64,000 bases of DNA, taken from positions 23,064,001 to 23,128,000 of the forward strand of contig OZ024756.1 in assembly GCA_964016885.1 (NCBI GenBank), in the 5' to 3' direction. The translations under genes and the position numbers were made by a program. The notes beneath the pieces are model-generated. The model ran no database searches, was not told the DNA's origin, and saw only the letters and a program-made list of their open reading frames with translations. Below are positions 6,085 through 7,744 of the stretch, piece after piece; the stretch's first letter is position 1, and each line of letters starts with the position of its first letter. The stretch is from Eledone cirrhosa. Lineage: Eukaryota.

Positions 6085-6763
6085 TGTGTGTGTATATATA
6101 TATATGTATATATATATATATATGTATATATATATATATATATATATATATATATATATATATATATATATATATATATATATATATACATATATATATG
6201 TGTGTATATATATATATGTGTATATATATATATATATATATATGTGTATATATATATATATATATATATGTGTATATATATATGTATATATATATATATA
6301 TATATATGTATATATATATATGTGTGTATATATATATATATATGTGTATATATATATATATATGTGTATATATATATATATATATGTATATATATATGTG
6401 TGTGTGTATATATATATATATATATATATATGTGTATATATATATATATATATATATATATATATATATGTGTATATATATATGCTTCAAGCAAACTTTA
6501 ACACCCTCATATATATATATATATATATATATATATATATATATATATATATATATATATATATGTGTGTGTGTGTGTGTATATATATATATATATATAT
6601 GTGTGTATATATATATATATATATATATATATATACGTGTGTGTATATATATATATATATATATATATATGTATATATATATATATATATATATATATAT
6701 ATATATATATATATATATATATATATATATATATATATATATATATGTATATATATATATATA
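6085..6763. repeat. (TA)n/(TG)n microsatellite
   Basis: Seen directly. Confidence 0.97.
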
Positions 6764-6843
6764 TGCAAATTAGGCTGCTCAGCCGTTAATTTTCATAAGG
6801 AAAGTATATACTTTCGAACGTTCAACTATCTGGCAGATGGGTA

Positions 6844-6888
6844 AACGGTGCTGATGATAGCTAACAAGCTTGAAACTAGTACATCGTT
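6844..6888 (+). ncRNA. Minimal type I hammerhead ribozyme
   Basis: Stem I AACGGTG/CATCGTT; CTGATGA; stem II AGCT-AACA-AGCT (closed by U.U); GAAA; palindromic stem III ACTAGT; GUA cleavage triplet, cut after 6881. Confidence 0.8.
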
Positions 6889-7321
6889 CCTGTGTCAGTG
6901 TTGAACAAAAAGGTGACGTGGTTGCCTTAACACCGTATGGCATAAATTCAGGCTGTTCAGTTTGTTTACAAACGAACAAAGCGACGTTAGCGCCGCTAAA
7001 CTGATACGTGCATATATGTATGTGTACCTGTATGCATATGTATATATATGTGTATATATATATATATATATATATATATATGTGCATGCTACTGTACGTC
7101 TGTATACATATATGTATGTACGTATACATGCATACTTACATTTAAGTAAGTGCCATACTAAGAGTGAGAAATGAAATTTCGTTTTCATTTTGTTTTAATT
7201 TATCGTTTTCGGTATGCCTAACCGATTTAACTCACTCAATATGCAAATTAGGCTGCTCAGCCGTTAATTTTCATAAGGAAAGTATATACTTTCGAACGTT
7301 CAACTATCTGGCAGATGGGTA

Positions 7322-7366
7322 AACGGTGCTGATGATAGCTAACAAGCTTGAAACTAGTACATCGTT
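7322..7366 (+). ncRNA. Minimal type I hammerhead ribozyme (second tandem copy)
   Basis: Identical to 6844-6888 at an offset of 478 nt. Confidence 0.8.
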
Positions 7367-7744
7367 CCTGTGTCAGTGTTGAACAAAAAGGTGACGTGGT
7401 TGCCTTAACACCGTATGGCATAAATTCAGGCTGTTCAGTTTGTTTACAAACGAACAAAGCGACGTTAGCGCCGCTAAACTGATACGTGCATATATGTATG
7501 TGTACCTGTATGCATATGTATATATATGTGTATATATATATATATATATATATATATATATGTGCATGCTACTGTACGTCTGTATACATATATGTATGTA
7601 CGTATACATGCATACTTACATTTAAGTAAGTGCCATACTAAGAGTGAGAAATGAAATTTCGTTTTCATTTTGTTTTAATTTATATATATATATATATATA
7701 TATATATATATATATATAAATATAAATATATATATAAATATATA

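Follow-up and report, generated by a model that had tools for sequence, protein, structure and literature searches.

Metazoan non-LTR retrozymes, described from coral, mussel and axolotl, consist of short, low-GC, non-coding tandem units that contain one type I hammerhead ribozyme (HHR) each and occur as dimers to long multimers in genomes that also harbor Penelope-like elements (PLEs), according to the available text of two studies (PMC7229834; 10.64898/2026.07.22.740005). In the former, Cervera and de la Pena (2020) proposed that RNA circles are copied into tandem cDNA by the reverse transcriptase (RT) of a retrotransposon, with PLEs as the likely driver; in the latter, Li, Clavereau and Pollet (2026) linked retrozymes to PLEs by co-occurrence and trees and discussed unequal crossover for array growth. 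A unit of 478 bp found in a 64,000-nucleotide stretch of the Eledone cirrhosa genome (contig OZ024756.1, positions 23,064,001 to 23,128,000; hereafter the window, in which all positions below are given unless stated otherwise) shares these properties and, on the features testable in sequence, is a non-LTR retrozyme. Units of its family measure 466 – 484 bp, slightly above the 150 – 450 bp given in the available text of PMC7229834 and within the 51 – 972 bp given in that of 10.64898/2026.07.22.740005, have a GC content of 38% outside the TA tract, and contain low-complexity reading frames only. The family differs from these retrozymes by inverted arms, two fixed ends and genomic editing marks, which the available text of both studies does not report. 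Furthermore, it is known from DNA, its circles and cleavage being predicted, and the three PLE families compared yielded no terminal repeat homologous to it.

PLE insertions are described as having an inverted 5' arm and a tail at one of their ends, and as targeting (TA)n (PMC8557442 and PMC3846280, available text). In an anole PLE, RT starts at two sites, which bound the tail, and extension takes place on both target strands in vitro (PMC11167929, available text). Compared with EN+ PLEs as described in these three sources, the window family has the same partial tandems, 5'-inverted arm, one-end tail and (TA)n targets, but it lacks an ORF, its tail is about 60 nt long instead of 30 – 40 nt, and its arms reach 18 or more units. 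Chlamys PLEs such as MRC1 are likewise non-autonomous, multicopy head-to-tail insertions. According to the available text of PMC8557442, canonical HHRs are absent from most of them, and their 3' sequence is usually common to an autonomous family, whereas the window family has an HHR and, among the three PLE families compared, no matched partner. The minimal, dimeric HHRs of PLEs, in the available account of PMC4209133, resemble those of the window in their short palindromic helix III, which should require a second copy, and in the low activity to be expected; the window family differs by the absence of both the G10.1-C11.1 pair closing stem II and the long helix II of many of them. Finally, circRNA-derived pseudogenes (Dong et al. 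2016, PMC4897178) are genomic copies made from circular RNA too, but they stem from back-spliced mRNA circles, and the words 'rolling' and 'tandem' are absent from the main text of that study.

The tandem unit and its predicted hammerheads

The element in the window is embedded in (TA)n microsatellites on both flanks, as originally predicted; TRF placed the 5' flank, the target tract, at 6093 – 6764 (period 2, 334 copies) and the 3' flank at 7681 – 7748, and a period of 478 with 1.9 copies at 99% at 6761 – 7683. The element starts with ATAT, which is common to the element and the 5' tract. On the forward strand, a full non-coding unit (bases 1 – 478; 6763 – 7240), with matches of 98 – 100% in dispersed arrays, is followed by a terminal unit (bases 1 – 441; 7241 – 7683) that stops at the second fixed end of the family, of which the genome contains 536 exact forward-strand copies joined to TA. 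The two copies are nearly identical, the sole difference being one extra TA in the internal tract, in agreement with the earlier reading. The 35-bp spacer that had been placed between them did not hold up, as it corresponds to unit bases 442 – 478 (7204 – 7240, forward strand), an ordinary part of the unit that is present at the internal junctions of all multi-unit arrays examined and is missing from the last unit only, since insertions end at about base 441. Within the full unit, a UA/UG self-complementary stretch (7004 – 7138, forward strand), where A>G changes cluster in other copies, is predicted to fold into an extended hairpin. Downstream lies the tail (7141 – 7203, forward strand), the segment of about 60 nt between the fixed ends at unit bases ~380 and ~441, which would lie between two reverse-transcription start sites by analogy with the anole PLE in the available text of PMC11167929. 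A search of the window for an ORF encoding RT and GIY-YIG (tblastn) gave no match.

Both copies contain a complete candidate HHR of type I. The first (6844 – 6888, forward strand) is composed of a stem I of 7 bp (6844 – 6850 with 6882 – 6888), CUGAUGA (6851 – 6857), a stem II of 4 bp (AGCU/AGCU; 6859 – 6862 with 6867 – 6870) closed by U6858.U6871, GAA (6872 – 6874) and stem III, the palindrome ACUAGU (6875 – 6880), with a predicted cut after A6881. The second (7322 – 7366, forward strand) is identical, with a predicted cut after A7359. Hence, the original prediction was right that each copy has complete core motifs (CUGAUGA...GAAA-CUAG-UA at 6851 – 6881 and 7329 – 7359) and that the predicted cut sites are 478 nt apart, so that cleavage would free 478 nt. 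As no Rfam hammerhead family reached its gathering score on the motif (HH9, 18.5 bits versus a cut-off of 52; E 0.15), the assignment relied on an exact match to the core and on compensatory changes over three families, namely the window family and its sister families B and C. Indeed, the core with CUGAUGA, GAAA and the triplet GUA fits CUGANGA/GAAA/NUH and is kept in families B and C, with GUU as the triplet in family C. In stem I, the five sequences compared have G-U, U-G, U-A or A-U at one pair, and two further pairs are swapped from G-C/C-G to A-U/U-A in family C. Type I HHRs occur in tandem units elsewhere too, with 611 identical HHR strings among the fetched, partly overlapping loci. Rfam matches to miRNAs were rejected as a product of the TA hairpin.

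The U.U closure of stem II, raised earlier as a caveat, is a real mismatch in the window family and in family B (G10.1-C11.1 being found in family C only), but the worry is lessened by axolotl HHR_Amex2, which has the same mismatch at the base of stem II and yet cleaves, better so as a dimer (PMC7229834, available text). Given the palindromic helix III, it is plausible that the two hammerheads would fold as a dimer, following the model in the available text of PMC4209133. Free-energy co-folding of the two HHRs was uninformative, as it returned a symmetric duplex instead of an active dimer (ACUAGU duplex, -4.8 kcal/mol). Among Xenopus retrozyme dimers, one out of nine cleaved in vitro (10.64898/2026.07.22.740005, available text), and HHR mutants of the anole PLE were still inserted in vitro, making HHR cleavage dispensable there (PMC11167929, available text).

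The window contains additional repeats. Positions 4984 – 5099 match 5S rRNA (65 bits) with a decayed 5' end, and likely represent a pseudogene or a 5S-derived repeat. At 16810 – 17060, another HHR-like motif is present in two copies, head to head in a very long (TA)n tract, an arrangement resembling a short insertion with two arms, from a different family. HHR-like cores of the CUGAAGA type, belonging to further repeats, occur at 40509 – 40543, in a unit of about 430 bp between TA tracts, and at 59470 – 59510 (reverse strand); close variants of such cores recur in several fetched loci. Finally, a 166-bp tandem array with a higher-order period of 496 bp and matches of 94 – 97% spans 22737 – 25468.

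Genomic copies with two fixed ends and two arms

A DNA search of the genome returned at least 627 unit matches in dispersed arrays, ranging from dimers to multimers. Exact patterns spanning an end and the adjoining TA matched the forward strand 536 and 561 times for the two ends, corresponding to about 1,100 copies of each; forward-strand counts were used, as reverse-strand counts were inflated by overlaps. In total, the genome contains about 1,500 insertions, with arrays of up to about 20 units and 9 kb. Such numbers exclude the assembly duplication that had been named as a refutation of the tandem. The arrays are also young, as had been proposed, with 47 single-unit substitutions per 128,868 scored bases in long arrays.

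The two fixed ends, about 60 nt apart, are both joined to (TA)n target tracts. Along C1 (0 – 190.7 Mb), 64 ends at unit base ~441 and 62 at ~380 were found, 26 and 24 of which were unpaired, and all 38 divergent end pairs combined one 441 end with one 380 end. For closer analysis, 99 loci were fetched, encompassing the window, 26 long arrays (selected among best matches or from junction lists), 52 C1 loci with a 441 end and 20 paired arrays, mostly long ones; four without a scorable array were dropped, leaving 95 loci with 622 pieces. Some unit positions refer to a 466-bp reference, on which 441 and 380 become 429 and 370, respectively. Two-armed, head-to-head structures were present in 62 of the 95 arrays, 59 of which had one end of each type. 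The copy in the window, which falls into a minor subfamily, has a single arm with the 441 end; it is a small two-unit member of a large two-ended family, and the locus itself is ordinary. A junction count of 458 was considered as a sign of other families behind most ends and rejected, since it covers the subfamily of the window only; similarly, loci with a 441 end and little else were not an autonomous parent but short truncated copies.

Sister families B (422 bp, 76% identical to the unit of the window) and C (466 – 468 bp, 62% identical; 5,117 exact HHR matches) follow the same two-end rule with ends of their own. Family B looks older, its copies at 30 loci (L101 – L130) being 91 – 99% identical to the reference unit, with arms of about 1 – 2.5 units. 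One two-armed insertion (L221:4002-5800; C1:149.58 Mb) is mixed: the arm with the 441 end belongs to the window family and the other, with the first-site end, to family C, a 26-bp piece of which lies at the joint. This suggests that an enzyme is common to both families, and it implies that the two arms are not always derived from one molecule.

Relationship with Penelope-like elements

The features of PLE-mobilized elements were retrieved in the family: a head-to-head inverted 5' arm, a tail at one end only, and insertion into (TA)n microsatellites. Furthermore, three young protein-coding PLE families (at loci L136, L088 and L177) were found, encoding an RT with YRDD plus GIY-YIG at the C terminus (737 – 760 amino acids; two translated). 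They follow the two-end rule with their own ends, 86 – 118 nt apart, namely PLE-A (ORF of 760 amino acids; ends at 2857 and 2968; tail of about 112 nt), PLE-B (tail of about 118 nt) and PLE-D (ORF of 737 amino acids; ends at 3634 and 3720; tail of about 86 nt). Pfam searches with two of the PLE proteins returned nothing named, and 99 homologues were mostly unnamed. As these three PLE families and families B and C obey the same two-end rule, with the PLE signature, a PLE enzyme is the likely driver of the movement of the window family, and the earlier retrozyme/PLE reading is strengthened at the family level. No sequence in common between the unit and PLE-A, PLE-B or PLE-D was found and, therefore, the unit is not assigned to any named PLE as its derivative.

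At one locus (L194:4058-6798; C1:252.58 Mb), a young PLE-D copy faces an arm of the window family in head-to-head orientation, the two being separated by about 14 unrelated bases. This makes PLE-D a lead as partner, a deletion between separate insertions being possible too. Among the public sequencing runs that contain the unit, none is recorded as RNA, and six of unknown kind gave contigs only; small shares of two further runs, presumed to be RNA, yielded nothing for the unit. These results have no bearing on expression. Two runs labeled as other organisms (X22 and X23) gave single unit contigs of 470 and 486 nt at about 99% identity and low depth (window 7136 – 7500), and a single contig record of run X24 fuses PLE-B RT sequence directly to the unit (window 7265).

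Substitutions within and between arrays

Outside the TA tract, A>G on the sense (hammerhead) strand accounted for 8 of the 13 private substitutions that were fixed throughout an array, compared with 12 of the 153 found in single units (p = 9e-6), of which 26 were T>C. Family C (30 loci) behaved similarly, with A>G in 10 of 20 array-fixed private substitutions versus 1 of 42 single-unit ones (p = 1.6e-5). The internal TA tract was interrupted by TG in 538 out of 538 units, which are not independent of each other, and by CA in none, whereas the flanking TA tracts carried both interruptions (TG 34/150; CA 20/150). Ten of 22 A>G sites fell in reference bases 240 – 365, the region of the predicted long hairpin, which holds 24 of the 126 scored A positions (p = 0.0015). 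The neighbor preference of ADAR was weak (5' U at 12 of the 22 A>G sites versus 44 of 126). Sense A>G changes clustered in a long hairpin are the pattern expected of ADAR editing on RNA. The data thus suggest that the array-wide A>G marks stem from ADAR edits on the template RNA, as judged from genomic sequence. An edit made on one molecule can be present in all units only if this molecule was copied over and over. The private edits may have accumulated over several unsampled generations.

Periodic marks were observed as well. In L166 (C1:160.4 Mb), two units alternate over 10 full units and differ at 15 sites, all A/G, and in L209 and L046, period 3 within period 6 and period 3 occur, respectively, the units of such period-3/period-6 patterns differing at 1 – 2 sites. 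No report of periodic A>G marks in retrozyme arrays was found in open-licence PMC and bioRxiv main texts, supplements being a further place that could bear on this point. The two arms of an insertion were identical in 28 of 28 arm pairs, compared with 52 of 756 mismatched pairs (7%), which speaks for one template having served both arms. Inner breakpoints lay within 5 nt of the cut site in 3 of 154 cases, about 3.6 being expected by chance. The arms thus stop at random and not at the cut site, indicating a template without a visible 5' end there. Genome-wide, deletions just upstream of the cut were found in 12 units versus 10 in a control window, and multi-base deletions, too few to weigh, in 2 versus 0, one with a 2-nt microhomology. 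The 7-nt deletion of L157, ending at the cut and removing stem III in 5 of 5 covering units, fits a trimmed and ligated circle, as a single case. In L040, an edit occurs in unit 2 of each arm only, compatible with a trimer or else with a linear multimer. Loci L148 (mixed units), L201 (edit in the first 6 of 9 units) and L293x (period-3 edit in one arm only) are ill-suited to one simple circle and need mixed templates, switching or later exchange.

Concerning the origin of array length, the 153 single-unit substitutions, which include some junction alignment artefacts, contrast with 11 shared non-A>G ones, ten of which occur in two units only. Five of the 26 arrays with at least nine pieces were devoid of any single-unit substitution. 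Longer arrays were less diverged (rho -0.36, p = 0.005, n = 59, four arrays with junction artefacts left out), a trend that is biased because long arrays were partly chosen as best matches, favoring long and young ones. Duplication at the DNA level does occur, as illustrated by L295, in which a block of two units with five non-A>G variants is duplicated, and by two-carrier variants in L041, L047, L049, L172 and L211, yet it is too rare to produce 15 – 20 units before mutations arrive.

Proposed mechanism and alternative explanations

The family is probably a young, non-coding, non-LTR retrozyme that is moved by a PLE enzyme copying circular RNA round and round. That the arrays are a record of rolling-circle reverse transcription, in which ADAR edits on monomer, dimer and trimer circles were copied lap by lap into the germline, is a somewhat bolder reading, which we nevertheless favor. 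According to this mechanism, arrays would be transcribed and paired hammerheads would cut weakly, yielding RNAs of one, two and three units, which would be closed into circles by a host ligase, while ADAR would edit the long UA hairpin of the RNA. The PLE RT/GIY-YIG protein would cut both strands of a TA tract, and two cDNAs would be primed on one RNA, at unit bases ~441 and ~380. Each cDNA would lap the circle and fall off at a random point, after which the two would be joined head to head or one would be kept. The copy in the window would then be a single arm, begun at the 441 site and extended over about 1.9 laps.

An account with the same element and enzyme, which we consider unlikely, has a linear hammerhead-cut RNA as template, on which the RT jumps repeatedly from the 5' end to the 3' end, as on a pseudo-circle. 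It explains the fixed and periodic A>G marks and the common arms equally well and predicts much the same DNA, and template switching is real, as the mixed arms of L221 indicate. Jumping from a cut 5' end is disfavored by the lack of a breakpoint pile-up at the cut site (3/154) and by the similar numbers of units with deletions upstream of the cut and in the control window (12 versus 10, deletions only, genome-wide); moreover, related retrozymes form circles (PMC7229834, available text). Twin priming of the classical L1 type, on one linear RNA, was discarded, since the 441 arm does not stop near base 380. Growth after insertion is a quite improbable origin of the arrays. Here, one-to-two-unit insertions from linear RNA would be lengthened later by unequal crossing over, in a minisatellite-like way (10.64898/2026.07.22.740005, available text). 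Block duplications as in L295 and the two-carrier variants speak for it, and an edited seed of 1.x units could yield an array with a fixed edit, but DNA-type mutations are nearly all confined to single units (153 versus 11 shared), 5 of the 26 arrays with at least nine pieces lack single-unit substitutions, exact period-3 and period-6 patterns are improbable from misaligned exchange, and both arms would have had to expand independently.

Periodic arrays would also result if DNA circles were cut out of older arrays, replicated as rolling circles and reinserted. This route seems very improbable, as it leaves unexplained both the sense-strand A>G bias and the two fixed ends that occur once each in an insertion, next to fresh TA tracts, and that protein-coding PLEs have too. 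It is scarcely credible that the window tandem arose by duplication in the assembly, or that its hammerhead is a chance match. The sub-threshold Rfam score and the position within long TA tracts speak for such an artefact, but the at least 627 matches and the recurrence of this end at about 1,100 loci refute it at the family level. In addition, core and stems are kept, with compensatory changes, across families that are 62 – 76% identical, and the unit is present in independent public runs.

Implications

The window family provides structural evidence on circle copying and on a PLE drive, both of which had been proposed earlier. As the circle-copying mechanism names two predicted priming sites, it is testable with the existing in vitro PLE assay. 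The array-wide marks also suggest that edits made on RNA can return to the genome. If the rolling-circle reading is true, RNA editing would be a main source of heritable change here, and one step would suffice for satellite-like arrays as long as 9 kb to arise.
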